From Candidatus Bathyarchaeota archaeon (GTDB lineage Archaea; Thermoproteota; Bathyarchaeia; 40CM-2-53-6), in assembly GCA_005888745.1 (NCBI GenBank), contig VBBS01000027.1, forward strand, positions 55,045-119,044: a stretch of 64,000 bases of DNA. The letters run 5' to 3'. Both the position numbers and the translations under genes were made by a program. The notes under the pieces were generated by a model. The model was not told where the DNA came from. It did no database searches and worked only from the letters and a program-made list of their open reading frames with translations. Below, one piece after another: positions 7,470 to 50,620 of the stretch (position 1 is its first letter; every line of letters begins with the position of its first letter).

Positions 7470-7554
7470 CTTCAGGTCTAGTGGTCTTCCGGATACGTAC
7501 AGTGCAGCCTCGCAGAGCTGCTGCTGTAGGTCAGCAGTTTTCTGCTGAGCTGTG

Positions 7555-8232
7555 TTAGTCGAAACTTGTGTTTCCGTCGTCTCTCAGCTCGATTTCGATA
7601 TCACCGAACTCTAAAGGCTGGGCGAGGCCCACTCTTCCTTCTACTGCCAAGAATAGCAGCATGATGAACATTCTGACCGCTTCGAGAGGGTCTCCCTTTC
7701 CAAGGAGGGTTAGGAAGGACAATTTTGTTCGCGCGGATCCAGCTTTTGCTACTAGTCTCTGGAGAAACGCTTTGATATTCTCTTCAATCTTGACGAGGAA
7801 ATCGTCGACTTGTTCAAACACCTCGGGCGTCCTGAGAACCATCTGTGCGTTTGCCGGGAGCATTCTCTCCGCCGTCAACACCTCCAGTAATCCTTTGATG
7901 ACTTCCTCAACAGATGTGGTTGTCGACTCGTAGCGTAAGGGAAAGGATAGGGGAGGGGGAACGAAGTCTGTCGGCCTCTCGAGGGGGGGCTTCGGCGGTT
8001 CCTCCATCTTGAGGATTAGTTCTGATTTCATGCGCAGAAGGATTGCTGAAGAGAGAAGGGCTGTCCCAGAAACGGAGAAGTCGATGAACCCTCGACCCCT
8101 CATCTCATGAAGAAGCTCCTCCAGTATGTTTGCGAGGTTTACGTCCCACGGTTTGACGCGGTGAAGATGGATGAGGTCGAAGAGAACGGCATATGGTGCC
8201 TTCAGCCAGTACGCCTCTTCGTGAAGCGTCAA
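7555..8232 (-). CDS. scpA: segregation and condensation protein A (kleisin)
   Basis: ScpA-like N-terminus; overlaps the smc stop by 4 nt. Confidence 0.7.
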   Translation of the reverse strand: MTLHEEAYWLKAPYAVLFDLIHLHRVKPWDVNLANILEELLHEMRGRGFIDFSVSGTALLSSAILLRMKSELILKMEEPPKPPLERPTDFVPPPLSFPLRYESTTTSVEEVIKGLLEVLTAERMLPANAQMVLRTPEVFEQVDDFLVKIEENIKAFLQRLVAKAGSARTKLSFLTLLGKGDPLEAVRMFIMLLFLAVEGRVGLAQPLEFGDIEIELRDDGNTSFD

Positions 8233-36948: not shown

Positions 36949-38061
36949 CTATTGACCGATACCGATGGTGTTGCCGATACCGGCGACTATTATAGTATCG
37001 CCCGGCTTGCTCCGTTCCAGAATGAGGCTCTTGATCCTCTCGATAACTTTCTCTCCAGCCTCCATTATCTCCTTCTTCATCGGCGTAATCGCTTCCTGAA
37101 TACTCTCCTTTACGATAACAGCGTAGACCGGAATCTTGTGGACTGTTGCTTCCTGTTCGATCTTGAACCGTTCCGTGCCGACGCCGCCGATAGCCGCCCC
37201 AATTCCTTCGCTGATCTCGCCTGAAGTCTCGCCCTCGAACTTCACCGCCGCATCCACCATGACCACCATCGAAACCTTACCAACATTTTCTTCGATGATC
37301 GTCTTGATGGCGTCCCCCGGTTTCCCAACGTTTCCGCCAGGACCCTCCGCCTTCAAAGCGATCACTCTACGGTCCTCCATCATCGTCTCCGCAACAACAA
37401 CGTCCTTCTCGACCTTCCGCTTCTCCTTGTCCTTCATCAGCCTCGAAGCAACAAGTGGTCCGATTCCATCCCCGATAGGCTGGCCCTCAGCGAACGCCTT
37501 CGCGGCGCCCAAGTAGGCCTCAGCCTCTTGGATAATCAGTGGAAGCAACGCTTGAAGCTGGATAATGATGAAGATACTGTTAGTCTTCTTCCCCATCAAG
37601 TAGAAGTGTCGGATAATCCTGTAGATCGTGTTAAGAGCCCAAGAGGCCTCCACCAAGTTCTCCAGGTTCATAACCTGAGAAGAGTCCGCGCCGGGCGCGA
37701 TCCTTCGAACATCCTCCTTGAACTTCGCATCTCGAACATCCAGCAAATGATCGATCTTGCCGACGATTCCAGCTGGGTCCATATCGACCGGCGAGATTAG
37801 GAATTGCTCCATCAACACATTGATTTGTGGACCGGGATCAGTTGAAGGTTTTCCGATTTCCTTGACGGTCTTGAGCGTTAGATCCTTCGCTGAGTTTCGG
37901 AACATGTCCAGTCTCCGCAATCCCTTGTCGATCTCCCAAAGGAACTGGCGCATCTGCAGCTTCTGACCAAACCCGAAGAACAGTGCGATGAAGAGAACAG
38001 TAAAGAGTAATTGACTGATGGTGCCCAGATTTCCCAGGATCGCATCGAAAGGTGTAGCCAA
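36949..38061 (-). CDS. membrane-anchored hypothetical protein (archaeal DUF1512-like)
   Basis: N-terminal TM, 370 aa, conserved-looking globular domain; no catalytic motif recognised. Confidence 0.45.
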   Translation of the reverse strand: MATPFDAILGNLGTISQLLFTVLFIALFFGFGQKLQMRQFLWEIDKGLRRLDMFRNSAKDLTLKTVKEIGKPSTDPGPQINVLMEQFLISPVDMDPAGIVGKIDHLLDVRDAKFKEDVRRIAPGADSSQVMNLENLVEASWALNTIYRIIRHFYLMGKKTNSIFIIIQLQALLPLIIQEAEAYLGAAKAFAEGQPIGDGIGPLVASRLMKDKEKRKVEKDVVVAETMMEDRRVIALKAEGPGGNVGKPGDAIKTIIEENVGKVSMVVMVDAAVKFEGETSGEISEGIGAAIGGVGTERFKIEQEATVHKIPVYAVIVKESIQEAITPMKKEIMEAGEKVIERIKSLILERSKPGDTIIVAGIGNTIGIGQ

Positions 38062-38236
38062 TTAGCCAGGGCTCCGAAATCTAACCGATTATTCCCGTCT
38101 GAATGTTATAAACGTTGATCCCTAAGACTAGCCCAAAGTAATCCGAAAGATATCCGACAGGAAAACCGTTACTTCTTGTTGAAACAGAAAATGAGGTTGG
38201 CAGCGGTCTAAGCTTCGCGTGGGCTTTCGCACCACA

Positions 38237-38503
38237 CTACCACATAGATCGCCTGGGAGATTCACTTCCGTGCTTCCGGTACGAGTCAAGCATCGCCCTA
38301 AGTGTTCCTGCCTTGCCAACATCACTGAATCCGATCCTATCACAGAATCGGAGCAAGTTGTCCCTGCCAAGGATGGCTAACTTCCAACTTGTAATCGTGC
38401 TCCTTCGAACGCCAGCCTTGGTGTCCAAGTACAACTTGGAGTCGATGCCCATTTCGGTGAGCATCCCGCCGATGTTTTCTAGGAGCATACTATTTGTGTC
38501 CAT
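38237..38503 (-). pseudogene. C-terminal remnant of an HTH-LAGLIDADG homing-endonuclease-like gene (third copy of the family in this window)
   Basis: MLTEMGIDSKLYLDTKAG...NLLRFCDRIGFSDVGKAGTL aligns with the C-terminal halves of ORFs 41264..41956 and 49282..50208 (LRECLGLKATLVYKGK...VKRFSRVVGFELARK); lacks the LAGLIDADG motifs themselves. Confidence 0.45.
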
Positions 38504-38539
38504 GATGCTTTTCTCGTTCTTTCGGAATGGGTACGGGTC

Positions 38540-40552
38540 CTAGCTCCCAGCTATGGCCGCCAACCCCGTGAGCAATGCCCCCCGGAGTCGGCTAGATAAG
38601 CCTTGTCCGAAATCAGGCCTAGAAGCATACGCGGGCGGTGCTTCAACCGGATGGTAATATTGCGACGCTGGCTCGCGCCTTCGCCTTGATACTAGAGCTA
38701 TCAGAACTACGAGGAACAAGAGGGCTAACCCCGCAATGAGGTAGATGAAGGGAATCCCCACGACCTTCAGATTAGTCAGGTTTGGAATCCCATTTATCGT
38801 AACGGTCAAAGTGTTTTGCCCTGAGGCGAACCCGGGCTTCGAGGCCTGAACGGTGACAGTTGGGTTCGAGGCCTGGAGAGGCGTAGTGTAGACGGCCGTG
38901 TAGTTACCGTTACCGCCATCAGTTGGGCTTGAGAAGCTTCCACCAGCCGAGGATGAGAGAAAGATCGTGGCCCCTGTTACGGGGCTGGTTCCGTTTGTGA
39001 CTCGAATCATCAGGACAATCTCACCTCCCGGAGTGATCGAAGCAACGCTAGGAACGGCAGCTACGGTCAAAGGCGGAAACGGATTCAGAGTGATCGTCGT
39101 CAGAGCAGATCCACTTATGAAACCATTTTCACTCGCAATTACCTGAATTATCGAGCTGACAAGAGAGTTCACAAGCGGTGCTGTGAAATTGGACGAATAT
39201 ACACCGATGCTGCCCATGATAGGTTGAGTGAACCCGCCGCCAGCCGATGAGCTAAGAGCAAGAGTCACACCGGCCTGAGGAGTCGACCCATTCGTAACCG
39301 TGATGGTCAGAATCGAAACCTGTCCAGGCTTCAAGCTCGTCACGCTTGGAAATATCGTCGCCTGCAACCTAGGTGCGATTACGCCCAACGCGTAGACCTT
39401 CGTATCCCATGACCCGAAGAAGGCCCTAGAATCCGCGATGGCAGGGGACGAAGATATGCCGGCACCAGTCGTGTACTTCCAGAGCAAAGCCCCCCCAGTC
39501 GCGTTCAGCGCGTAAATGCTGTGGTCACTCGAGCCGAACAGTAGAGTATTCGAGCCGAGCGCCAGGGCTGGAGAAGATGAAATTCCCCCGATCGTACCTG
39601 CTTTGGGATACGTCCAGAGCTGGGCACCGGTCGTGGCGTTGAGCGCGTATAGAATGCCTCTGCCTGTTCCAAAATAAACTGCTCCATTGCTGACCGCTGC
39701 AGAAGTAGCGTTGAATGCTCCGATGTTGAACGTCCAGATAATGGCACCAGAAGTCTGGTTCATCGCGAGAAACCTATTGCTGTCAGCTCCAACGTACACC
39801 CTACCGTAAGCAAGAGCTGGAGCCGTGCTTATCGACGCCGCCACTCCAATAGGAACCTTCCATAGCTGAACACCCGTGGTCTCGTTAACCGCAACAACAT
39901 AGCCATTGTTTTGTCCGAAGACAACTCGACCATTATTGACCGAGGGAGATGACTTGATCGTGTCATCTCCAACATACTGCCAGGCGACCGTGTTGTTTGT
40001 ATAGACTGCCAAGAGAACTGAGTTGAACCTGACAAACCAGGTTCCGTAGAAGATCTTCCCACCAGCATAGACTGGCGAGGATGTGATCGGACTGATGTTC
40101 GCCCTCTGCCAGATCACCGATCCTGTCTGCTCATTGAGAGCATAGACCATCGAGTTTCTTGAGGCGAGATAGACTACGCCGTTCGCGACTGCAGGTGTCG
40201 CGTAGATCGGAGCTGAAGTGCTGAAGACCCACCTCTGAGCCCCGTTGTACTCGTCGAGCGCGTAGAGGTTTCCATCCCAAGATGGGATCAAAACCAGCCC
40301 GTCAACAACGACGGGGGAGGGATACACGTAGGATCCAGTTGTGAAAGTCCACATGAGGTTTGGCCCACTGGGCGAGGATGCTGGAGTAGTTCCGGTTCTC
40401 AGAGCGTCGTGATGGAACATCGTCCAGGGATAATCTGTAGGACCCGGAGAAGCGGCGGGAAAATGTTGCGGAGTCGCTGGTGTTTTGCTAGCGGGTATTC
40501 CTATGCTGAGAAGGAAGAGGGAAAGGATCAGAATAACAACTGCCCATCTCAA
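38540..40552 (-). CDS. cell-surface PQQ-like beta-propeller repeat protein with C-terminal TM anchor
   Basis: Signal peptide, eight-fold PQQ/BamB-like repeats (LYALDxxTGxxxW), Ig-like Thr-rich domains, C-terminal hydrophobic helix + RRRRE. Confidence 0.75.
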   Translation of the reverse strand: MRWAVVILILSLFLLSIGIPASKTPATPQHFPAASPGPTDYPWTMFHHDALRTGTTPASSPSGPNLMWTFTTGSYVYPSPVVVDGLVLIPSWDGNLYALDEYNGAQRWVFSTSAPIYATPAVANGVVYLASRNSMVYALNEQTGSVIWQRANISPITSSPVYAGGKIFYGTWFVRFNSVLLAVYTNNTVAWQYVGDDTIKSSPSVNNGRVVFGQNNGYVVAVNETTGVQLWKVPIGVAASISTAPALAYGRVYVGADSNRFLAMNQTSGAIIWTFNIGAFNATSAAVSNGAVYFGTGRGILYALNATTGAQLWTYPKAGTIGGISSSPALALGSNTLLFGSSDHSIYALNATGGALLWKYTTGAGISSSPAIADSRAFFGSWDTKVYALGVIAPRLQATIFPSVTSLKPGQVSILTITVTNGSTPQAGVTLALSSSAGGGFTQPIMGSIGVYSSNFTAPLVNSLVSSIIQVIASENGFISGSALTTITLNPFPPLTVAAVPSVASITPGGEIVLMIRVTNGTSPVTGATIFLSSSAGGSFSSPTDGGNGNYTAVYTTPLQASNPTVTVQASKPGFASGQNTLTVTINGIPNLTNLKVVGIPFIYLIAGLALLFLVVLIALVSRRRREPASQYYHPVEAPPAYASRPDFGQGLSSRLRGALLTGLAAIAGS

Positions 40553-40741
40553 TGGAATCCCCTAGCTGAACCCGAACACCTTGCTCCAAGAGAGATTTGG
40601 AGAATCCACAACTAAAGAGACATGTAACTCACGCTTCCACAATCGCGGATGCGACAATCGGAGCAAAGCCGAAAACTAGATTAATCTAGACACGGCACAA
40701 CGCCCGAACAAGGTGCAACCTGTCTGATATTCGCCTTCTTA

Positions 40742-41002
40742 ATCTTCTACCGGGTTAGACCGCTGTCTGAGGCAGATAAGAAGAAAGCCACAGCCGACTG
40801 GGCACGGTTCAAGAAAACACTGTCCAAAGAACTCGCGATAGTAGCGGAGTACGCGCACATCTGGGGAACAACCTACAACGGCATGATCCTCGTCGAGTCA
40901 CGTGACCTCTCCACATTCCACGACTTCTGGCACCGTTTCCGCGAAACTACAAGATGGTACGTGCCAGAGACAAGAACATACATCGCCCAGAAAGAAGAAT
41001 AG
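40742..41002 (+). CDS. unannotated small ORF, DUF3303-like, without a canonical start codon
   Basis: Frame translates as IFYRVRPLSEADKKKATADWARFKKTL...GMILVESRDLSTFHDFWHRF...; begins immediately after a TAA stop with ATC; absent from the track because no ATG/GTG/TTG opens it. Confidence 0.3.
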   Translation: MFYRVRPLSEADKKKATADWARFKKTLSKELAIVAEYAHIWGTTYNGMILVESRDLSTFHDFWHRFRETTRWYVPETRTYIAQKEE

Positions 41003-41263
41003 GCCAGAACTATCCCGAGTATTTCGACTAGGCTCTATACCAAGAATTTCCGACACCCGCATCTCAGTGGGGCACTCAACTCTCCGTCGGATTAGGAGAG
41101 ATTGTGCCACTGTTCCGGAAGGATTCTTAGCTTCGGCACCTTTCTCTCTGTCTTTTGACTGGAAACGCGCTCACTTGCCAGGGGTCTGGCCAGTGAAAAC
41201 GGTCAATAGGAAAATTCGCCCCCTAAGCGACCTTCTAAGCCCGTAGCCCTAGGATGTTACGAA

Positions 41264-41956
41264 TTGCTCACCGAGTCGCAGTCAGAGATGCTTGGGATAC
41301 TGTTCGGAGATGGGTCGATGTCTGAGAATCACAACTCCGTTCAGATCGTCATAACCGGTCACAAATTCGATGACGTAGAGTACCTAATTGGCCGCGTAGG
41401 TCCGATGTTCGCGGAACTCTTTGAAATGCCCCTCAAGGTACATCTAGTGAAAGATGAAAATACGATGATCCTCTACGCTTACTCCAAACGAATTGCCCTG
41501 ACCCTTCACGAATGGGGAATGCCTTTTGGCCGAAAAAAACTGGCCTGGCTCACACCGCACGTCGCATTGGATGAAGTATCTTTCGTCAGAGGCTTATTCG
41601 ACACAGATGGCTGTGTCTATCGCAAGTATGGCCCTTATTTGCAAATCCAGTTTAAGTTCGCTTCCCTTTCGCTCCTTGAGTACGCGAGGGAGTGTCTGGT
41701 AAGACTCGGCCTGAATCCCACATCGATCAGGTGCGACGATACGAAGTTCAGGTTCTATCTCAGCAGACAAGCCGAGGTAGACCATTTCTTTAGGGTCGTA
41801 GAACCCAAGAACCCAAAGCATCTTAATCGTTTCCAAAATGCTTCTCGGAATCGGTCCTACCGCCCATACACACATCGTCCTGAAGCACTCAGAAGAATTG
41901 GAAACCAACCAAGCCTTATAGGACCAATTCTGTGGAAAACACACTCGGTGGGGTAA
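41264..41956 (+). CDS. LAGLIDADG-family homing endonuclease-like protein
   Basis: Two dodecapeptide motifs, LGILFGDGSM and VRGLFDTDGCV, ~100 aa apart; TTG start; ends 27 nt before the tRNA-like locus. Confidence 0.7.
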   Translation: MLTESQSEMLGILFGDGSMSENHNSVQIVITGHKFDDVEYLIGRVGPMFAELFEMPLKVHLVKDENTMILYAYSKRIALTLHEWGMPFGRKKLAWLTPHVALDEVSFVRGLFDTDGCVYRKYGPYLQIQFKFASLSLLEYARECLVRLGLNPTSIRCDDTKFRFYLSRQAEVDHFFRVVEPKNPKHLNRFQNASRNRSYRPYTHRPEALRRIGNQPSLIGPILWKTHSVG

Positions 41957-41983
41957 CTAAGGAAACCTTTCGACATAGGGCTT

Positions 41984-42164
41984 GGGGCCGTAGTCTAGCC
42001 AGACCCACTCCGGGTCCTAGTAAGGGACGACGACGGGCTCCAGAATCTATGAAACATGCACACCGACCAATATCGAGGGATGAGGAAATTCGGGAGCGCG
42101 TGAAGATACCCGTAGACGAGGGACTCGGCGGATGTCGTGGGTTCAAATCCCACCGGCCCCACCA
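41984..42164 (+). tRNA. putative intron-containing tRNA (Pro-like acceptor stem); fold of the internal part unresolved
   Basis: 5' GGGGCCG-TA-GTCT-AGCC... and 3' GTGGG-TTCAAAT-CCCAC-CGGCCCC-A-CCA give a perfect 7-bp acceptor stem, canonical T-arm, discriminator A and encoded CCA; the span is ~178 nt, so ~100 nt of intron(s) is implied; coordinates +/-2. Confidence 0.45.
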
Positions 42165-42619
42165 GTGTAGGGCAAATCGTCAGGGACTGGAAAGATCAGG
42201 ATCTCCTCAGCACAGACTTTGGGTCTAACCATGGCTCTTCAATCCGCCTTCGAGTCTGTTGAGGAATGAATCAATGTACTGCCGTGCGATCCCCCAATCA
42301 AAACGGCTGAGAGAGTCCGATCCGGCCCCGTGAGGACGCGTGTCGCATTGTCATCGATTCTAAGCTAGGTTCACGTAGAATGTCTCGGTCCACGTAAGCG
42401 AGTCCATGATGATTTTCAACTCAATACTGCCCGTTGTCTTGTCTGCTTTTGTGGCGTTCCATCTAGCATTCTGAACCACGAGCAGGAGTGCGTCCCAAAC
42501 CTTCTCAAAGGCGTGGGCAAATCTACCTTCTTTTCTAAAGGCAACTTCTCACATTGGGCCTGCAACCTGGCAATAAACTCACACCCCATCGTCTCCTCAA
42601 TGCTCGGGGCAAATTGAAC

Positions 42620-43081
42620 CTACTTCTCTGTTCGATGGAGATGTTTCGCGTCTAACGCCTTGGCGCGCTGTATTAGTTTGGCGTCAATTCCAGTAGTTAC
42701 TGCACTGCTCGAAAACCAGGAGTCGAGTATCTCTTTTGCGATGGCGGTCGAGGTGCTTCTGAGGCTCATAGCCAATACGTTGGCGTCGTCCCACATTCGA
42801 GCACCTTTCGCGGTTTCCGCGTCCCAGCACAAGGCGGCTCGGACCTCTCGGACCTTGTTGGCGGCAATCGTAACCCCGGTTCCAGTCCAACAGAACAGAA
42901 CACCCTGGTCCGCTCTCCCGCTGCTCACGTCTAGTCCTACTTTCTCTCCAACATCAGGCCAGCCCATCGCCTCTCCTTTCAAGGGACCAAAGAGGGTGAC
43001 AGTGTGACCCCTCTTCTTCAACTCCTCGACGACATAGTCTGTCAGAACAGTTTTCTCGTCGCTTCCAACAGCGATCTTCAA
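42620..43081 (-). CDS. rpiB: ribose-5-phosphate isomerase B (RpiB/LacAB family)
   Basis: MKIAVGSDEKTVLTDYVVEELKKRGHTV N-terminus typical of RpiB. Confidence 0.8.
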   Translation of the reverse strand: MKIAVGSDEKTVLTDYVVEELKKRGHTVTLFGPLKGEAMGWPDVGEKVGLDVSSGRADQGVLFCWTGTGVTIAANKVREVRAALCWDAETAKGARMWDDANVLAMSLRSTSTAIAKEILDSWFSSSAVTTGIDAKLIQRAKALDAKHLHRTEK

Positions 43082-43170
43082 GTCTCGATCGAGAACCCCG
43101 TATACCTCAACATAGGTTTTGTGCCGGGAAAGCTAAAGTCTCTCTAGATCACGCTGTGAACTGACACATC

Positions 43171-43665
43171 TTGAGTAGGCCTTCAAAGCAGGTAAGCACT
43201 TCCAAGACCACTCTCTCCAGTCAGATGATGCCTGTGGACGCCAATCCGATGGGAAACGTGCACGGGGGCACAATTCTCAAACTTGTCGATGTCGCCGCCG
43301 GAGTCACGGCCCTGCGACATGCGAGAACTATTGTGGTCACCGCAAGCATCGACCGTATGGACTTTTACCATCCAGTCTATGTCGGCAACCTTCTCAACTT
43401 CAAGGCCTCAGTCAACTACGCTGGAACAACCTCGATGGAAGTCGGAGTAAGGATAGAAGCTGAGGACCTGAAGACTGGTAGAATAACACACACCGGCTCA
43501 TCCTACCTCACCTATGTTGCTATAGATGAGAACGGACAACCAGTCGAGATTCCCGACGTCATCCCGGAGACACTTGACGAAAAACGACGCTGGAGAGAAG
43601 GAAAAAAGCGAAGGGCCGAACGCCTCAAGATCCTACAAGATCGAAGGAGCAAGGGCAAGGCCTAG
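43171..43665 (+). CDS. acyl-CoA thioesterase (hotdog fold)
   Basis: PVDANPMGNVHGGTILKLVD motif. Confidence 0.75.
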   Translation: MSRPSKQVSTSKTTLSSQMMPVDANPMGNVHGGTILKLVDVAAGVTALRHARTIVVTASIDRMDFYHPVYVGNLLNFKASVNYAGTTSMEVGVRIEAEDLKTGRITHTGSSYLTYVAIDENGQPVEIPDVIPETLDEKRRWREGKKRRAERLKILQDRRSKGKA

Positions 43666-43704
43666 GGTCGACAAAGAACGAAAGTCGCAATTGTAGGGTT
43701 CGGC

Positions 43705-44562
43705 ATGATGGGCCGGCAGATAGCCCAAGTATTCGCCCAAAATGGCCACGAGGTCGAGGCCACGGATGAGGATCAGCAAGCACTGAAGGCGGGGCTCAAC
43801 GAAATAGCAGACGGGCCCTACGGATTGCACGCGGCTGTTTCAAAAGGAAAACTGGCTGCAGAGCAAGCTCACAGGACTCTAGCAGCCATCAAGACAAGAC
43901 CCGAGCTAGCGGATGTTTGCAAGAACTCGACTCTTGTGATCGAGGCAGCCTTCGAGGAGCTGCAACTCAAACAGAATCTGTTTCACAGAATTGAATCTGC
44001 TGCGCCACCAACTGCGATCATAGCATCAAACACTTCAACCTTGAGCCTGGACAAGATCACCCAAAGAATCTCAAGGAAGGACAGAACGATTGGAATGCAC
44101 TTCTTTAATCCAGCCCAGCTCACAAAACTCGTCGAGATCGTCCGAGGAACGTCGACATCACCTGAAACACTAGAGAAAGCGTCCCAAATCGTCCGGGAGA
44201 TCGGTAAGACCCCTATCCTCGCCCAAGATGAGCCTGGTTTCATCGCCAACCGTCTCGGACTCACCCTCTACATGGAGGCTTCAAGACTGCTAGAGGATCG
44301 TGTCGCAAGTCTCTCTGACATCGACACGTGCATGAGACTCGGATACAACCATCCAATGGGACCCTTCGAACTAGCCGACTTCGTCGGACTTGACACCAGA
44401 CTTCGGAATCTAGAATCACTCTACAAGTCAACGAATGAAAGTAAATGGATACCACCTCAGATTCTAAGAGAGATGGTCCAACAAGGATACCTCGGCGACC
44501 CTGCTAGAAAGAAGACGAGCAAGGGCGGATACTACGAGTATCTCCGGATAAAGCGAGGATAA
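43705..44562 (+). CDS. hbd: 3-hydroxyacyl-CoA (3-hydroxybutyryl-CoA) dehydrogenase; likely starts ~43678
   Basis: NAD-binding plus C-terminal dimerisation domain; the beta1 strand of the Rossmann fold, KVAIVGFG, lies upstream of the first ATG, in frame after the thioesterase TAG. Confidence 0.85.
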   Translation: MMGRQIAQVFAQNGHEVEATDEDQQALKAGLNEIADGPYGLHAAVSKGKLAAEQAHRTLAAIKTRPELADVCKNSTLVIEAAFEELQLKQNLFHRIESAAPPTAIIASNTSTLSLDKITQRISRKDRTIGMHFFNPAQLTKLVEIVRGTSTSPETLEKASQIVREIGKTPILAQDEPGFIANRLGLTLYMEASRLLEDRVASLSDIDTCMRLGYNHPMGPFELADFVGLDTRLRNLESLYKSTNESKWIPPQILREMVQQGYLGDPARKKTSKGGYYEYLRIKRG

Positions 44563-45019
44563 GAAAATCCCAACCCTTTATACAGAACATAAGCCGTGTC
44601 AACTCCACTGGTTGTTATTTGGTGTGTTAACTTCGTTCGTCTCCAGCCGTTACCTTCGAAGTATGACTCTTCACATGTTAGGCGGTCGTCGCATGAACCT
44701 GTCACGTTGGGATGAGGGGGATGACTCCGATCAGGTGACGGGTCAGAAATGGGATAGCCGGTTGGCTGGCCACCGTAAAATCCTTGCTTGGCAATCGGCC
44801 AAGTTACCACGCTATGGGCGTGAGGGGGCGGTTGAGGTTCGACCGTTCCCTGCCAAAAAGAGACTACATGTCTCTGAGGCGCAAGGGCTCGCAGGTGAAG
44901 CAGTGAAGAGGAACCCGCCGACGACGGTAATCCTCCGAGCAGATGAGAGCAAGTCTAGTCCCCCAGCAACGGAAGACTCGACAGAACCCAGAACACAACC
45001 CACAAACCATCGATGATGA

Positions 45020-45793
45020 TTGCTGTACACACACATTCTAGTTGAGACTGAGCCGCCTATCGGAATCATCCGACTGAACCGTCCGAAAGCTCTCAACGCC
45101 CTCAACTTCGAACTTATCCAAGAAACAGTGGAGGCACTCGAAGGCTTCGACAAAGACGACAGGATCAAAGCGACGATCTTGACAGGGGGAGACGACGCCT
45201 TCTCTGCTGGAGCAGACATCAAGGAACTAGCGGAAGCGACTCCTGTCACCTTGATCGAGGAGAACAAGTTCGCCCTCTGGGATCGCTTGAAGAAGATCGC
45301 AAAGCCGATCATAGGAGCGGTCAGCGGCTACATCTACGGAGGAGGATGCGAACTGGCAATGAATTGCGATATCATCATTGCATCCGAGACCGCACGATTC
45401 GCACAGCCTGAAATCAACATCGGAATAATGCCCGGAGCTGGCGGGACACAGCGTCTCACAAGAACCATCGGAAAGTATAGGACAATGGAGATGGTTCTAA
45501 CCGGACAACCCATGACCGCGCGAGAGATGGAGAAACACGGTCTCGTCAACAGAATCGTCCCCGTCGAGGCCTACTTCGATGAGGCACGCAAACTCGCCAT
45601 GCAAATCGCCCAGAAAGCCCCCATAGCCACACGGCTAGCGAAAGAGGCGGTGCTGAAAGCTCTCGACACACCGCTCGAGGAAGGGCTACAATTCGAGAGG
45701 AAGAATTTCTACCTCCTCTTCTCAACAGAGGACATGAAAGAGGGAATGAAAGCCTTCACGGAAAAACGGCCCCCCAGATTCAAAGGACGATAG
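45020..45793 (+). CDS. enoyl-CoA hydratase (crotonase family)
   Basis: Crotonase fold with catalytic Glu pair (GGGCELAMNCD...E). Confidence 0.85.
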   Translation: MLYTHILVETEPPIGIIRLNRPKALNALNFELIQETVEALEGFDKDDRIKATILTGGDDAFSAGADIKELAEATPVTLIEENKFALWDRLKKIAKPIIGAVSGYIYGGGCELAMNCDIIIASETARFAQPEINIGIMPGAGGTQRLTRTIGKYRTMEMVLTGQPMTAREMEKHGLVNRIVPVEAYFDEARKLAMQIAQKAPIATRLAKEAVLKALDTPLEEGLQFERKNFYLLFSTEDMKEGMKAFTEKRPPRFKGR

Positions 45794-45796
45794 TTC

Positions 45797-46591
45797 TTGG
45801 CACCTGAAACACTCATCGTCGAAGAACACGACCACATCACAAAGATCACACTGAACAGGCCGAGCGCCCTAAATGCGATAAACGACAAGATGGGCGAAGA
45901 ACTACTCGCGACTCTCAAAGAGACAGAGAAGAGCGACACTACCAGATGTCTTGTCATAACAGGGGCAGGAAGAGCTTTCTCAGCAGGAGAAGACATATCA
46001 GCTCTGAAAGACCGCTCTGGGACAGGAGACCATCCCTCACTCGGGGATCATCTCCGGAAGAAGTATCATCCAATCATAACCCGGATCCGAAACATCGAGA
46101 AACCAGTAATCGCCCGTCTGAACGGCATAGCAGCCGGAAGCGGGGCAAGCTTGGCCCTCGCCTGCGACATCCGAGTAGCCTCAGAGGAGGCGGGCCTCAA
46201 ACAGGCCTTCATCGGGGTAGGCTTGATACCGGATTCTGGAAGCAGCTACTTCCTAACACGAATGATCGGTCCCGGAAGGGCCCTCGAACTCATCATGACA
46301 GGAAAAACAATACCAGCGAAAGAAGCTGAACAACTTGGCCTCATCAACAAAGTCGTCCCCGCCGCCGAGCTTGACAAGCATACAGACGAGCTTGCCCATC
46401 AGCTCGCAACCGGCCCGACCAAAGCACTAGGACTCTCCAAGCGAATCGTGAACAAAGTCATAAGCCTCGAACTTCCAGAAGCCCTGGAGTATGAAGCCTA
46501 CAACCAGGACATCGCTGGACGAACCAGCGACCATCTAGAAGCCGTCAAAGCCTTTCTAGAAAAACGACAGCCGAAGTTCTTAGGGAAATGA
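45797..46591 (+). CDS. enoyl-CoA hydratase/isomerase (second crotonase paralogue)
   Basis: Crotonase-fold motifs; 4 nt after the previous gene. Confidence 0.8.
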   Translation: MAPETLIVEEHDHITKITLNRPSALNAINDKMGEELLATLKETEKSDTTRCLVITGAGRAFSAGEDISALKDRSGTGDHPSLGDHLRKKYHPIITRIRNIEKPVIARLNGIAAGSGASLALACDIRVASEEAGLKQAFIGVGLIPDSGSSYFLTRMIGPGRALELIMTGKTIPAKEAEQLGLINKVVPAAELDKHTDELAHQLATGPTKALGLSKRIVNKVISLELPEALEYEAYNQDIAGRTSDHLEAVKAFLEKRQPKFLGK

Positions 46592-46658
46592 GACACGGTG
46601 TGTTTTCCAGGTTTCACGTTTAAGTAACAAGCTCCTCAATCGCGAGAGTTGAATAACC

Positions 46659-47660
46659 GTGCCGGGAAGGAACAAGAAACGGCCGAAATTGGACCTCAAC
46701 ATCTTCCCCGGAAACTGGACTGTCACGAATGACCGGATGTTCAAGGCCTTCGACCTGTCCTTCGCCCAGAACTGGAACCCTGCTACTTTTCCTTGGGATG
46801 AACTTGACCAGAAGAATTTCGACTCGAAGGAGAGAATAGCGCAAGCCTACTGGATGTCCAAACTGGCTCTCTTCGAGAAATCTGGAATTGGAGCCTTCGG
46901 CTTTGGGGCCGTAAGAGCCGCAGAACTGAACATGGAAGACCCCACGAAGAAGATGCTTGCCTCCATCACATACGATGAATGCCGGCATGACGAAGTCTGC
47001 CGAAGAGCCTGCGACAAGCTCTGTCCCAACTGGCCATACGGATACAAGCCACAATCAGATTTCGAATCAAGGGCCCTCCGAAACATCAAGGCACTCTACG
47101 ATGACGGCAGACGCTACTGGGAAGGATTCCTAAAGGCGTGGGAATATTTGCCGCCTGAGATTCTGTTCGCTGGCTTCTTTTTTGCGGAAATAGGCGCAGA
47201 AACGATCTTCAACGCGATGCGCCAGACCAGCAAACTCGGAATCTACCAACAAACCTTCCGAAATATTACACGAGACGAGACTCGCCATCTCGTTGCGACA
47301 ATGGCCCTGCTCCGGGCCATGGCCGAGAAGTTCTCGGAGGAACAGAAGATGACTATTACCCGGCAGATGAAGCAGGGCTTCATCTTTCTCTCACCCCTCC
47401 TCTACCAGCACAAGCCCGAGTTCTGGCATCTCCCCGCAGACTTTGACAAGGTCGACCAGGAGATGGAGGAAGCGGCCAGGGACGCGGGACTGGGAGTGCT
47501 CACCCTTGAAGAGAAGGTGAAGTTCTGGAAGGAAGCGATTGAGAAGAAACGGTCCGAGATAGAAGAGATGGGAATCAAGGTACCCGCCATCCCAGAGCTG
47601 GGAGTTGAGGGCGAAGAGGTTCAGGTTAAGAAGAACGAGACTATAGCCACGAGCTTCTAG
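46659..47660 (+). CDS. ferritin-like diiron-carboxylate protein (PaaA/BoxB-like acyl-CoA oxygenase family)
   Basis: Two ExxH motifs (DECRH, DETRH) ~95 aa apart, each preceded by a conserved Glu, matching PaaA DEAGH/EESFH. Confidence 0.55.
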   Translation: MPGRNKKRPKLDLNIFPGNWTVTNDRMFKAFDLSFAQNWNPATFPWDELDQKNFDSKERIAQAYWMSKLALFEKSGIGAFGFGAVRAAELNMEDPTKKMLASITYDECRHDEVCRRACDKLCPNWPYGYKPQSDFESRALRNIKALYDDGRRYWEGFLKAWEYLPPEILFAGFFFAEIGAETIFNAMRQTSKLGIYQQTFRNITRDETRHLVATMALLRAMAEKFSEEQKMTITRQMKQGFIFLSPLLYQHKPEFWHLPADFDKVDQEMEEAARDAGLGVLTLEEKVKFWKEAIEKKRSEIEEMGIKVPAIPELGVEGEEVQVKKNETIATSF

Positions 47661-47667
47661 GAAGTGG

Positions 47668-47985
47668 TTGAAGATCACGAAGATCATAGTCCTGTTCGGA
47701 CAACCGAAAGACCCCGAACTATTCGATGAGCAATACTGGAAAGACCATGTTCCAATAGCGAAGGCGATGCCAGGTTTGAAGAAATACACAGTTCACAAGA
47801 TCGTTGGGGCACCACGAGGAGAACCGGCATACTACCAGGTTGTCGAACTGGAATTCGAGAATATGGACAGCCTGAAGAAAGCATTGGAAAGCCCGGCCGG
47901 ACGCGAATCAGGCCGGCACGGCGTAAAGATTGCTACTGGTGGCATAACTTTCCTTTACGCGGAATCAAGAGAAGCGATGCCGTAG
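47668..47985 (+). CDS. EthD/Dabb-like dimeric alpha+beta barrel protein
   Basis: 105 aa, EthD-like pattern (KYTVHKIVG...YYQVVELEFENMDS). Confidence 0.5.
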   Translation: MKITKIIVLFGQPKDPELFDEQYWKDHVPIAKAMPGLKKYTVHKIVGAPRGEPAYYQVVELEFENMDSLKKALESPAGRESGRHGVKIATGGITFLYAESREAMP

Positions 47986-48389
47986 AACAACAACAGTCTA
48001 GCCCGGTTCCATCTGACATATTCCTCGGAAAACGTTCTTCTAATCAGACCCGTCAGTTCTAGGACAGGAGCGGGGAAGTCTTAGGCCGCATCGGAATCGT
48101 TGGAGTTGGACATTCAAAGTTCGGAAAAAGGAGCGACGCCTCCCTCCGAGAGCTAGCATTCGAAGCGTACAGTTCCGCCCTAGATGACGCCGACATCGAC
48201 TCTTCAAAAATAGACGGTTCAATAGTTTGCTCCGCCACTCACTACGACAAGCAACGATCGCCTGCAGGTGTTGTTGCGGAATATCTCGGACTCAATCCCC
48301 AACCAACATTCAACGTTGAGGCAGCCTGCGCCTCCAGCGCTGTTGGCCTTCGGACCGCGTGGGCGCTTGTCTCATCAAAACTTCATGAT

Positions 48390-49235
48390 GTGGTGGCCGT
48401 TGTGGGGGTGCAGAAGATGACCGAACTCTCCTCGGAGGAGATCCAGGAGCTCATGGGCAGAGCAGGGGACGTCATGTGGGAGTCTCCCTTCGGAACAACA
48501 ATGCCCGCATACTACGCCTCCTATGCTAACGCCCACATGGCCAAGTACGGAACTACAGAGGAACAAATGGCGCTCGTGTCGGTGAAGAACCGAAAATACG
48601 GATCCAAGAATCCTAACGCCATGTTTCAAAAACCCATCCAATTGGAAGAGGTCCTAAAATCGCGAATGGTATCTTATCCTCTAAAACTATACGATTGCTG
48701 CGCCAATGCTGACGGGGCGGCATGTCTGCTCATTACTAGTGCCGAAAAAGCAAAGAAAATTTCTGATAGACCCGTATGGATCTCCGGGCTTGGCCTGGCT
48801 TCGAGTCCCATGTCGCTTGCTGGAAGAAAAGGTCCATTGACGAGTTTCGATGCCACAAGAAATGCGGCGAGAACGGCATACGAAATGGCCAATATCAAAC
48901 CACACGACGTACATGTGGCGGAGGTTCATGACTCTTTCTCGGTAACAGAAATCATCAATTATGAAGACCTCGGATTCGCACGACCTGGAAGGGGTGCTAA
49001 GCTTCTGGAAAACCAAGGCACGGAGCTCGGCGGGAGAATCCCCGTCAACATCGACGGAGGCTTGATTTCCAAAGGCCATCCAGTCGGAGCCACAGGCGCG
49101 TCCCAGATCTTCGCATTGGTCAAACAACTACGGGGGGAAGCGGGTAGCGTTCAGGTCGACGGCGCTAAGATTGGTCTCGCACAGAACATAGGGGGAATAG
49201 GAATGTACTGCTCCGTTACGATCTTGCGCTCATGA
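48390..49235 (+). CDS. thiolase (SCP-x/archaeal acetyl-CoA C-acyltransferase type); the true gene most likely begins ~48078
   Basis: The track ORF lacks ~105 N-terminal residues; the same frame upstream encodes GRIGIVGVGHSKFGK...EAACASSAVGL (catalytic Cys) with no stop and no ATG/GTG/TTG. Confidence 0.85.
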   Translation: MVAVVGVQKMTELSSEEIQELMGRAGDVMWESPFGTTMPAYYASYANAHMAKYGTTEEQMALVSVKNRKYGSKNPNAMFQKPIQLEEVLKSRMVSYPLKLYDCCANADGAACLLITSAEKAKKISDRPVWISGLGLASSPMSLAGRKGPLTSFDATRNAARTAYEMANIKPHDVHVAEVHDSFSVTEIINYEDLGFARPGRGAKLLENQGTELGGRIPVNIDGGLISKGHPVGATGASQIFALVKQLRGEAGSVQVDGAKIGLAQNIGGIGMYCSVTILRS

Positions 49236-49281
49236 GTACATTCTCCAAGCTCTATGACGAAAAGCGAGGGCGAATCTAGGA

Positions 49282-50208
49282 TTGCAGGTGGACATTCAAG
49301 AGTTGACCCCCATTCAAAGCTTCGGCAGAAGAATTCGAGCCTATGATAAAGCCACACGCCTCGCAAAGGAAGGTCGCCCTGTCACTGAAATCTCGAAAGA
49401 GACGGGAACGCCTGACGCTACCATCAGGGGATGGCTCGTAAACGGTCGAAAACCTTGGACCCGCTGCGAACTCTTCAAACCAACGTACTCTGATCAATTA
49501 ACATATGTTATCGGTGTTTACATGGGAGACGGCTCGATTTCCCGATGGAGAAATCGTTTTTTACTGCGATTAGATGTCAAAGACAAAGAATTCGCCGATA
49601 AGTTTTCTTCAACATGCGCACATGTTCTGGGTAGGAAACCATATTCTGTGAGGCATGTCAGGGATAGGGACACATACGAGACTATCATTTCAAACGCGTC
49701 TTTCTGCAAGTTCCTCAACCGAGGCCTCACCCACCTGGATCGGTATGTACGGGAGCATCCCTCTGGCTTTGTTAGAGGTTTAGCTGATAGCGATGAGTGC
49801 CCCACTGTGACAACAACAAAAAAGCGGGGCAAACCCTGGTTCTTCGTCCAAGTTGTAGTAGCAACATCCAAGAGCATACGCTTACTGAGCTATACTCGGA
49901 CGATCCTGAGGGAATGCCTCGGACTCAAAGCGACGCTAGTGTACAAAGGCAAGCCAAGACCCAGTGTGTTCAAGAACAAGTTGCTCCGTTCAAGAAAGAG
50001 GGTCTTTGACCTTAGGATATCGCGCTTTGGTGACGTGAAACGATTCTCCCGGGTTGTTGGTTTCGAATTGGCTCGGAAACAAGAGAAGCTTGCCGCTGCT
50101 ATCTTCGTCCGTGAAGGATTTGGTTCTGGTCAGGATGCGGTGAAAGAGTGGACCCGTCGCTGGGAGCATGGCACCACTGAGTGGATTCTCAAGAAAGGAG
50201 TGGACTAG
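49282..50208 (+). CDS. HTH + LAGLIDADG homing endonuclease-like protein
   Basis: N-terminal HTH-like region (ISKETGTPDATIRGWL), then motifs IGVYMGDGSI and VRGLADSDEC; lies between thiolase and its DUF35 partner and overlaps the DUF35 start. Confidence 0.65.
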   Translation: MQVDIQELTPIQSFGRRIRAYDKATRLAKEGRPVTEISKETGTPDATIRGWLVNGRKPWTRCELFKPTYSDQLTYVIGVYMGDGSISRWRNRFLLRLDVKDKEFADKFSSTCAHVLGRKPYSVRHVRDRDTYETIISNASFCKFLNRGLTHLDRYVREHPSGFVRGLADSDECPTVTTTKKRGKPWFFVQVVVATSKSIRLLSYTRTILRECLGLKATLVYKGKPRPSVFKNKLLRSRKRVFDLRISRFGDVKRFSRVVGFELARKQEKLAAAIFVREGFGSGQDAVKEWTRRWEHGTTEWILKKGVD

Positions 50209-50620
50209 GCAATTGGGTTTTGAAAAGTTCGGGAGATTTGGTTATGTCTCCCAGACCAAGATCAACCCCTTGTTATCCTATCTGGAAAAGGGGCAGATTG
50301 CCGCGACCAAGTGCAAGAAGTGCGGGAGAACGTACTTTCCACCAAGAGCCGAGTGCCTGGACTGCCGCCACAGTACGATAGAATGGGTTGTAGTGGACGG
50401 GAGGAGCAAACTGATCACATTCACCCAGGTTTTCTTCGCACCACCCGCCTTTCAGCACGAAACCCCGTACATGCTAGGACTTGCGGAACTCACGAATGGG
50501 CTTCGCGTATTCGCGCCTGTCAGTCCTGCAGTGGAAAAGGAGCAACTCAAACCGGGCGTCGAGCTGACCTTGAAGGTTGCAAAAGGCTCACGTGACAACT
50601 TGTACTACTGGCTCGAATGA
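50168..50620 (+). CDS. DUF35 OB-fold/zinc-ribbon protein (thiolase partner)
   Basis: CKKCGRTYFPPRAECLDC ribbon plus an OB-fold. Confidence 0.75.
   Translation: MAPLSGFSRKEWTRQLGFEKFGRFGYVSQTKINPLLSYLEKGQIAATKCKKCGRTYFPPRAECLDCRHSTIEWVVVDGRSKLITFTQVFFAPPAFQHETPYMLGLAELTNGLRVFAPVSPAVEKEQLKPGVELTLKVAKGSRDNLYYWLE

Follow-up and report, generated by a model that had tools for sequence, protein, structure and literature searches.

The origin, movement and multiplication of archaeal tRNA introns, especially in Thermoproteota, have long been in question; these introns are short and free of open reading frames (ORFs), so that no agent of mobility is evident in them. Endonuclease-bearing bulge-helix-bulge (BHB) introns of archaea have been described for 16S and 23S rRNA, and little is known about how introns are transmitted (PMC4496867). 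The archaeal group I introns reported to date all lie in rRNA (PMC6125680), bacterial tRNA group I introns rarely hold endonuclease genes (PMC13011429), and a survey of 5S rRNA insertions mentions neither an ORF nor an endonuclease (PMC7812874). Three genes of the LAGLIDADG type, here called copies A, B and C, are present in a 64-kb stretch of contig VBBS01000027.1 (the window), which belongs to the genome of a soil member of the Bathyarchaeia; copy A lies next to a tRNA-Trp gene, copy B between a thiolase gene and a DUF35 gene, and copy C inside a 5S rRNA gene. They are most probably three independent homing-endonuclease genes, each bound to its own homing site and standing at different stages of the homing cycle, namely invasion, fixation, decay and loss.

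Two of the genes are signs of intron-type elements that are apparently undescribed in their host genes, 5S rRNA and tRNA-Trp. A literature search, with most subscription journals outside its reach, turned up no LAGLIDADG gene described from a tRNA intron of an archaeon or from a 5S rRNA intron, a negative that is provisional, and BHB introns of this kind in 5S rRNA and tRNA appear unreported so far. For comparison, the corresponding loci of relatives (numbered with the letter L) were collected by a genome scan with the thiolase as query, taking one genome per species, and the genes of the window were then compared with all loci by tblastn; the relatives recovered are metagenome-assembled genomes (MAGs) of soil and sediment Bathyarchaeia.

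The three LAGLIDADG genes

All three ORFs were found where a first-pass annotation of the window had placed them, and each matches the Pfam family LAGLIDADG_3 above its gathering score. Lengths are given in amino acids (aa).

41264..41956, plus strand: copy A, 230 aa, a two-domain LAGLIDADG endonuclease gene (Pfam, AlphaFold2, Foldseek; family invariants kept)
49282..50208, plus strand: copy B, 308 aa, a probable N-terminal helix-turn-helix (HTH) and a two-domain LAGLIDADG endonuclease (Pfam, AlphaFold2, Foldseek, alignment)
38237..38503, minus strand: copy C, 88 aa, the remnant of a single-motif LAGLIDADG gene within an intervening sequence (IVS) of the 5S rRNA gene (Pfam, 142-aa orthologues)

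The Pfam E-values are 6.2e-9 for copy A, 2.7e-8 for copy B, in two stretches, and 2.1e-5 for copy C, which covers only profile positions 32-82, that is, the C-terminal half. Copies A and B carry both dodecapeptides, as had been read from the sequence at first sight; those of A (LGILFGDGS and VRGLFDTDG) each hold the catalytic acidic residue, those of B (IGVYMGDGS and VRGLADSDE) keep the aspartate, and in alignments the catalytic Asp of both motifs is conserved throughout the two families. The AlphaFold2 models have a predicted local distance difference test (pLDDT) score of 87 and a predicted template modelling (pTM) score of 0.80 for copy A, with residues 199-230 below pLDDT 50, and of 82 and 0.72 for copy B. 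When these models were compared with the PDB by Foldseek, the top match of copy A was I-Tsp061I (E 8.8e-12, TM-score 0.69/0.77), followed by I-PanMI, PI-PfuI and I-DmoI, and copy B matched PI-PfuI (8e-9), E-DreI, I-DmoI and I-Tsp061I, with I-DmoI and E-DreI at 1e-6 to 1e-8; WhiA stands far down both lists. According to these models, copies A and B adopt the LAGLIDADG core fold with two domains per monomer, and their best structural matches are LAGLIDADG homing endonucleases, as the earlier assignment of this fold had supposed.

The three genes had been taken for one family with two intact copies and one remnant. However, A and B are only 26% identical (E 6e-7, BLASTP) and copy C gave no significant BLASTP alignment with either, so that three separate lineages, each tied to its own target, replace the single family. 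No fourth LAGLIDADG ORF was found in the 64 kb by a six-frame hmmsearch with A- and B-family profiles. The HTH proposed for the family is retained for copy B, where a sub-threshold match to Pfam HTH_28 (1.6e-3) coincides with three predicted N-terminal helices, and is withdrawn for A and C, in which Pfam gave no HTH match. An intein-encoded endonuclease was ruled out, since the Pfam scans returned no Hint or intein domain and the ORFs are bounded by stop codons and separate from host ORFs. Likewise, no Rfam group I family matched the window, the loci L007, L011, L015 and L016 (gathering score), or the loci L099, L100, L101, L173 and L175 (E<=0.01).

Intervening sequences and endonuclease genes at the 5S rRNA and tRNA-Trp genes

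ARAGORN and Rfam (gathering score) report no tRNA or rRNA in the unmodified window, a blank that is misleading because its tRNA-Trp and 5S rRNA genes are both interrupted. In the relatives, Rfam located the 5S rRNA gene between the genes for DUF1512 and a PQQ-repeat protein, with 69-81 bits in L015 (80.9), L011 (72.3) and L099, compared with only 21.6 bits in the window; L016 scores 47 bits, and its insertion coincides with the mapped remnant of copy C. The gene is uninterrupted in seven relatives, where the exon ends directly abut, and these genes define the following parts, with lengths in nucleotides (nt).

38195..38565, minus strand: split 5S rRNA gene (exon ends abut in uninterrupted relatives)
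38565..38521, minus strand: 5S exon 1, GGTTGGCGGCCATAGCTGGGAGCTAGGACCCGTACCCATTCCGAA
38520..38273, minus strand: 5S IVS, 248 nt (boundaries from uninterrupted 5S genes)
38272..38195, minus strand: 5S exon 2 (boundaries from uninterrupted 5S genes)

Joined in silico, the exons give a 5S rRNA of 123 nt that is identical to the uninterrupted genes at 115-121 of 123 positions and folds into the three-way junction. At the identical position, the insert measures 410 nt in L007 and L024, 248 nt in the window, 56 nt in L016, 36 nt in L018 and 26 nt in L025, and together with the uninterrupted genes these alleles form a decay series from 410 nt with an intact ORF down to 0 nt. The product of the 410-nt inserts is a protein of 142 aa in which the LAGLIDADG motif occurs once, as YIRGFVDGEGW (Pfam 4e-11); its last codons lie in exon 2, and the last 36 nt of copy C (11 codons and the stop) likewise extend into that exon. 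Copy C differs from these orthologues by an in-frame deletion of 162 nt (54 codons) that removes the motif. It is thus this single-motif protein in shortened form and not the decayed relative of A and B for which it had been taken, and, judged from its sequence, it is dead, the active-site motif being gone. Nor is it free-standing and clear of any rRNA intron, as all three genes had been said to be; for copy A that description is true only superficially, as its orthologues lie inside a tRNA-Trp intron.

The family of copy C comprises 42 clusters at 90% identity, nearly all of exactly 142 aa, and a database of 1.84 billion proteins yielded only six 50%-identity representatives at E<=1e-10. When the sequence of the 142-aa protein was searched against the PDB, no meaningful match was returned. 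Inserts with an ORF also occur in the 5S genes of two other lineages (L173, L175), and in L176 (212..772) a C-like ORF closely precedes a 5S gene whose mini-IVS measures 32 nt. The same 88-aa deletion variant as in the window was seen on an independent soil contig, L177 (Ga0066658_10003119), and a variant of 88 aa is annotated in an NCBI Bathyarchaeota MAG (P0162, NCBI E6H34_02420); these occurrences mean that the deleted allele is established in a population and is no assembly artefact.

The termini of the insert are constant (AGAAYGAG...CTCGTACCGGAAG), and the deletions that shrink it, down to 26 nt, always leave both of them. They take part in a BHB motif with a 3-nt bulge on each side of the helix H (UCCG/CGGA), AA^A on one and AG^C on the other; the junctions lie in these bulges, and an inner helix h' has 6-7 pairs. 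BHB cleavage is placed after the second bulge nucleotide, and the junctions themselves were fixed independently, from the uninterrupted genes. All 4 base pairs (bp) of helix H form in 9 loci; in L173, L175 and L176 the helix carries a compensatory change from UCCG/CGGA to UUCG/CGAA and the h' sequences are entirely different, so that h' is maintained with four different sequences in four lineages. An unconstrained minimum free energy fold of the 5S genes with a mini-IVS also yields the BHB.

It could be argued that the insert is an expansion segment that is never spliced out, or that the 5S gene of the window is a pseudogene. Other prokaryotes, among them Halococcus morrhuae and Thermoanaerobacteria, do retain unspliced expansion segments in their 5S rRNA, including insertions in loop C (PMC7812874). 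Moreover, the outer helix h of the 5S motif is weak, which makes it an HBh'-type motif. Nevertheless, this explanation is improbable: a 4-bp helix stands between two 3-nt bulges exactly at the junctions and is kept through compensatory changes over four lineages, deletions always spare the termini, the exons are 93-98% identical to intact genes, and inserts of 248-410 nt with an ORF are far longer than that of H. morrhuae, which reportedly measures 108 nt. On the preferred reading, a spliced intron with a former endonuclease gene, copy C would be what is left of the endonuclease of a BHB intron in loop C of the 5S rRNA, the 162-nt deletion having removed its active-site motif. The 248-nt intron would persist because its BHB motif is still present, would presumably be removed by the archaeal splicing endonuclease, and may be on its way to a mini-intron.

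Two side observations concern the neighbourhood of this gene. The PQQ/beta-propeller surface protein (38540..40552, minus strand) is hypervariable, with 51-65% aa identity in L007, L015, L016 and L019, where the neighbouring DUF1512 protein is 95-98% identical, and it reaches 88-92% only in L013 and L032; this pattern looks like allele exchange or diversifying selection, between two RNA-gene homing sites. A weak Rfam match to SNORD116 (C/D box) at 37975..38067 (minus strand, E 9.4), which overlaps the start of DUF1512, is almost certainly due to chance.

In the case of copy A, the first-pass annotation had noted that it ends 27 nt before a tRNA-like locus, and this locus proves to be a tRNA-Trp(CCA) gene with three introns: once three segments are removed, ARAGORN calls tRNA-Trp(cca).

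41020..41263, plus strand: upstream block of copy A (reading of the sequences; orphan fragments in L007, L016, L018 and L020)
41984..42164, plus strand: tRNA-Trp(CCA) gene with three intervening sequences (ARAGORN after removal of three segments)
42001..42022, plus strand: D-loop BHB intron of tRNA-Trp (BHB)
about 42044..42107, plus strand: canonical 37/38 intron of tRNA-Trp, about 64 nt (box C/D-like segment antisense to the anticodon loop)
about 42114..42133, plus strand: variable-region intron of tRNA-Trp, about 20 nt (boundaries approximate; ARAGORN accepts many alternatives)

The tRNA-Trp gene is kept at the same spot in all relatives. Copy A is missing from eight covered loci (L015, L019, L023, L025, L029 and L031-L033), and the tRNA is in place at every one of them. 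In the block upstream of the ORF, about 41020-41075 is promoter-like and homologous to the region upstream of tRNA-Trp in the empty alleles; the rest occupies the place where relatives hold an orphaned 5' fragment of tRNA-Trp, here decayed beyond recognition. The conserved core of the protein spans about residues 1-195, and its last 20 or so codons read through the promoter-like block of the tRNA and form a tail that is predicted to be disordered.

Four arrangements of the ORF and the tRNA were found. In the first, the ORF is contained in the tRNA gene, within an intron of 620-622 nt at position 25/26, the boundary between D-stem and anticodon-stem (L011/L103, L099, L100); a group I intron was considered for this 620-nt element and dropped, as Rfam gave no match. 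In the second, a decaying orphan promoter with the 5' part of the tRNA is followed by the ORF and then by a complete tRNA (L007, L016, L018, L020); the orphan of L016 and L018 is of the resident type with the D-loop intron, and their downstream tRNA has a different 5' half and a 46-nt ORF-less intron at 25/26. In the third, the ORF precedes a complete tRNA and the orphan is not recognisable (the window, L009, L013, L024). The fourth is a mirror image of L016, in which an A-like ORF follows a complete tRNA-Trp and is itself followed by a degenerate orphan 3' half (L101, 1206..2236). A tRNA-Trp with an ORF-less intron of 31-46 nt stands beside a free-standing endonuclease gene in L016, L018, L024, L013 and L009. 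The window gene has no 25/26 intron; its D-loop intron lies 9 nt upstream of that position.

The 25/26 and D-loop introns of the tRNA share the BHB architecture. The motif was counted at 10 loci for the 25/26 intron, where helix H is UAUG/CAUA and h' (6-9 bp) closes the ORF-bearing loop, and at 7 loci for the D-loop intron, which in the window has a perfect BHB with H CUAG/CUAG; the 5S IVS accounts for 9 loci.

Copy A belongs to what would be a large family of endonucleases living at tRNA genes. Its relatives were found at 80 metagenomic loci, with 27-93% identity, several of them being pseudogenes, and in at least 52 of the 80 a tRNA gene lies within about 150 nt of the ORF; this tRNA, which may be any of many different ones, is usually encoded on the strand of the ORF and starts 10-25 nt past its stop. 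In two distant members (L138, L158) the ORF stands between two copies of the 5' part of a tRNA. Some distant A-like genes (L114, L109, L111, L115, L116, L128, L142, L172) have a convergent layout, in which the ORF runs up against the 3' end of an opposite-strand tRNA gene, and the proteins of such genes end in '...GDAGIRTQ', a translated antisense T-arm.

At both tRNA-Trp and 5S rRNA, two states were observed, the endonuclease gene either beside a gene with an ORF-less intron or within that intron. That archaeal 5S rRNA and tRNA-Trp BHB introns can carry their own LAGLIDADG genes, and that the same lineages are also parked upstream of targets with a mini-intron, sometimes beside an orphan fragment of the target, is a proposition to which we give even weight for and against. 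Copy A, a member of the tRNA-associated family, sits in the window just upstream of a complete and intron-protected tRNA-Trp.

Further observations were made around this tRNA. The 37/38 intron, conserved in all relatives, contains box C/D-like elements (GATGAGGA ... GTGA; CTGA in L011) on either side of an antisense stretch (42088..42101) complementary to the anticodon stem-loop; box C/D guide RNAs reside in euryarchaeal pre-tRNA-Trp introns, and the window intron resembles such an RNA. Just upstream of the promoter-like block lies a small conserved ORF (40742..41002, plus strand) that ends in ...ADKKKATADWARFKKTLSKELAIVAEYAHIWGTTYNGMILVESRDLSTFHDFWHRFRETTRWYVPETRTYIAQKEE and a stop; its 3' end can be made out in L015, L016 and L032, an internal ATG is its first canonical start codon, and Pfam gave no match. 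In L007, a TnpB-like gene (7492..8691, Pfam Cas12f1-like_TNB, 399 aa) stands between tRNA-Trp and a 4HBT gene, the RpiB match still being present there; the window has no such gene at this position, so L007 holds another mobile element at the same tRNA locus.

Copy B and the evidence for horizontal movement

The position of copy B between a thiolase gene and a DUF35 gene had been interpreted as an insertion, and this is borne out by 17 close relatives in which the site is empty.

48081..49235, plus strand: thiolase gene, left flank of the B site (sliding identity, dS, junction alignment)
49236..50212, plus strand: insertion carrying copy B, 977 nt (17 empty versus 9 occupied alleles)
50213..50620, plus strand: DUF35 (ChsH2-like) gene, right flank of the B site (Pfam; start from empty alleles)

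In the junction alignment, the insertion of 977 nt stands in place of a thiolase-DUF35 spacer of 6-11 nt. The 17 empty relatives have thiolases 77-87% identical to that of the window and start DUF35 6-11 nt past the thiolase stop (...GATCTTGAGGGCGTAGCCTGGTTGGGTTTCGAAAAG...), and the more distant genomes, bacteria included, all have the empty arrangement; tblastn found copy B in nine loci only (L001-L006, L014, L024, L026). The empty alleles start DUF35 at the equivalent of TTG 50213 (MGFEKFG...), which is therefore the true start, 4 nt after the stop of copy B; the 41-nt overlap of the two genes that had been described was an artefact of choosing the first ATG, an in-frame codon lying upstream. 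The last codons of the thiolase also differ, reading MYCSVTILRS and a stop in occupied alleles versus MYSAVTILRA and a stop in empty ones.

The B-family proteins found on six metagenomic contigs each lie between thiolase and DUF35, down to 53% identity, and alleles with the gene are interspersed with alleles without it in at least 5 clades of a neighbor-joining tree of the thiolase. The ORF is intact in all nine occupied loci, with a ratio of nonsynonymous to synonymous substitution rates (dN/dS) of 0.10-0.39 and a fixed position. In the window, copy B carries a G172E change in motif 2 (LADSDEC instead of LADSDGC) that is unique to it, at a glycine that is nearly invariant; in the L004 allele, motif 2 reads LADSNGS, with N replacing the second Asp, and the HTH region is swapped in the L004 and L005 alleles.

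Both flanking genes have peculiarities of their own. At 48081..48083 the window thiolase has TTA where the relatives start (TTG or ATG; CTG in L004, L017 and L032), and no in-frame ATG, GTG or TTG occurs from the upstream stop (48060..48062) to 48390; this could reflect loss of the start codon, an unusual initiation codon or a sequencing error. DUF35, compared between the window (50213..50620) and the loci L003, L005, L021-L026 and L028-L031, occurs in close relatives as two divergent classes of allele (82-93% versus 52-64% aa identity), the adjacent thiolase being 80-88% identical, and this split may reflect a further recombination boundary, to the right of the B site.

The synonymous divergence (dS) of copy B is much lower than that of its surroundings. 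Against L002, it is 0.12-0.18 for copy B and 0.43-0.66 for ten flanking genes; against L024, it is 0.54-0.75 for copy B and ranges from 1.8 to saturation for these genes. A contrast with the whole thiolase had been drawn at first and was set aside as overstated, the 3' part of that gene being itself foreign: in a sliding window, about 48500..49150 has 63-75% identity to L002 (background 85-92%) and 90-100% to L004 only, so that this tract is, by its identity profile, a foreign mosaic. In addition, the B allele of L004 is a recombinant, with a 5' half like that of L005 and a 3' half like that of the window. Reduced dS, mosaic flanks and a recombinant allele are signatures of repeated gene conversion at a homing site.

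In the case of copy A, dS against L009 is 0.71 with saturated flanks, a different allele (51-56% identity) occupies the same locus in L016, L018 and L013, hosts with a flank dS of 0.5-1.3 to the window, and a dN/dS of about 0.15-0.2 indicates purifying selection. For copy C, dS against L024 is 1.11 with saturated flanks, a weak signal from 76 codons only. The relative closest to the window, L032 (dS of flanking genes 0.4-0.6), is empty at all three sites. These comparisons support the interpretation of A, B and C as selfish, mobile homing-endonuclease genes that are polymorphic in presence and absence, with precise empty alleles in close relatives. Copy B would spread by intronless homing, cutting the thiolase/DUF35 junction of an allele without it and being copied in by repair, with the flanks dragged along.

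The three genes might instead be ancient residents that entered once in the ancestor of the clade, descended vertically without horizontal movement and were lost precisely many times. Copy B has one and the same position in each of the nine occupied loci, even at 53% identity, copy C has its decay series, and many metagenomic A copies are pseudogenes, all of which this history would accommodate. The first-pass annotation had regarded such conserved synteny as an argument against mobility. However, homing to one site predicts a fixed position, so the fixed position of copy B refutes nothing, and the empty alleles, which the genome scan found at each of the three sites, decide. They are free of scars and identical to those of distant outgroups, including bacteria; moreover, the dS of copy B is well below that of the flanks in two comparisons and that of copy A below saturated flanks in one, two A alleles of 55% identity share one locus in hosts with a flank dS of 0.5-1.3, and copy B shows recombinant alleles, mosaic flanks and a distribution over at least 5 clades. 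Vertical residence is thus unlikely.

Several points nevertheless weigh against three mobile homing endonucleases, beside the weak outer helix and the retained 5S insertions already mentioned. The dS estimates rest on short genes and on MAG contigs that may be chimeric or mixtures of strains, and a neighbor-joining tree of the A proteins gives no polarity between the intron-borne and the upstream state. The intactness of copy B, its dN/dS of 0.1-0.4 and its fixed position would also fit a protein that benefits the host. Copy B of the window may be crippled or inactive as a result of G172E, as its sequence suggests, and the TTA at the start position of the thiolase means that the operon itself may be compromised. 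Finally, we infer from sequence the endonuclease activity, the target sequences, the in vivo splicing and the course of events at the tRNA. The description of these genes as actively spreading and selfish holds in part: mobility and selfishness agree with the empty alleles, but in the window copy C is dead and copy B carries G172E. Only copy A looks fully intact, and active spread fits the population, not necessarily the window copies.

Domestication, in which copy B, for instance, would regulate the beta-oxidation-like operon through its HTH or copy A would serve in tRNA-Trp processing, in the manner of WhiA or intron maturases, is the least probable account and very doubtful, as the purifying selection on A and B (dN/dS 0.1-0.4), the probable HTH of B, the tight operon-like gene order and the presence of WhiA among the weaker structural matches are outweighed by closest relatives that lack the genes and have operon and tRNA intact, by catalytic aspartates conserved in both motifs across the families, by best structural matches that are active homing endonucleases and not WhiA, and by the replaced HTH region in L004 and L005, and purifying selection is equally expected of a homing endonuclease gene that is still moving.

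Implications and comparison with known systems

A tRNA intron and a 5S rRNA intron have here been caught with endonuclease genes, together with a decay series leading to mini-introns of 26-46 nt and with empty alleles nearby, and the idea that mini-introns are relics of homing endonuclease invasions becomes directly testable. If the proposed reading is true, a natural series would lead from free-standing endonucleases through collaborative homing and endonuclease-bearing introns to the short ORF-less tRNA and rRNA introns of Thermoproteota; homing endonucleases would have left behind, as their footprints, at least some of the tRNA introns of archaea and perhaps also tRNA genes that are split or fragmented, and a large family of LAGLIDADG endonucleases associated with tRNA genes would have gone unrecognised. 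In the thiolase/DUF35 case, a LAGLIDADG gene of an archaeal chromosome would be documented as moving by intronless homing. The endonucleases are candidates for new specificities, and the empty sites allow a guess at their targets. Moreover, since the 5S and tRNA-Trp genes are missed by Rfam and ARAGORN, estimates of MAG completeness and tRNA counts are affected.

Among known systems, the rRNA-intron endonucleases of archaea (I-DmoI, I-Tsp061I, I-PorI and I-ApeI, from 16S and 23S BHB introns of Thermoproteota) have the same fold, and one of them, I-Tsp061I, is the best PDB match of copy A. The intron type is also the same, a BHB that the splicing endonuclease presumably cuts, and there, as here, the ORF decays once fixation is reached (PMC4496867). 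The differences lie in the hosts, which here are 5S rRNA and tRNA-Trp, and in copy C, which derives from a single-motif protein of 142 aa with an ORF that continues into the 3' exon. Bacterial tRNA group I introns with endonuclease genes, as in cyanobacterial tRNA-fMet and tRNA-Arg, share the placement of the gene within a tRNA intron (PMC13011429), but those introns are self-splicing and located in the anticodon loop, whereas here a BHB intron is found at 25/26 of an archaeal tRNA.

Copy B has the fold and an HTH module in common with WhiA and other domesticated LAGLIDADG proteins. On the other hand, WhiA has lost the catalytic residues, carries its HTH at the C-terminus and is uniformly present, while copy B has an N-terminal and dispensable HTH, keeps the catalytic residues and is patchily distributed; its conserved catalytic Asp, its replaceable N-terminal HTH and its absence from the closest relatives place it outside the class of WhiA-type regulators.

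The free-standing endonucleases of T4-like phages (seg, mob) and their intronless homing resemble copy B in that a gene stands between two conserved genes, with alleles lacking the homing endonuclease gene (concept in PMC3984707), and also in the co-converted mosaic flanks and the altered flank codons beside the insertion. Those enzymes are of the GIY-YIG and HNH types, whereas copy B is a LAGLIDADG gene in a metabolic operon of an archaeal chromosome, and its cleavage is putative. Collaborative (trans) homing, or endonuclease invasion, as described for F-CphI with the psbA intron and mobE with the I-TevIII intron, links the two states seen here (PMC3984707), in which the endonuclease gene is either beside the intron-bearing target (L016, L018, L024, L013 and L009 for tRNA-Trp; L176 for 5S rRNA) or inside the intron (L011, L099 and L100; L007, L024, L173 and L175). 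The phage cases involve group I ribozymes, whereas the introns of these Bathyarchaeia would be protein-spliced BHB introns, with orphaned gene fragments flanking the endonuclease gene.

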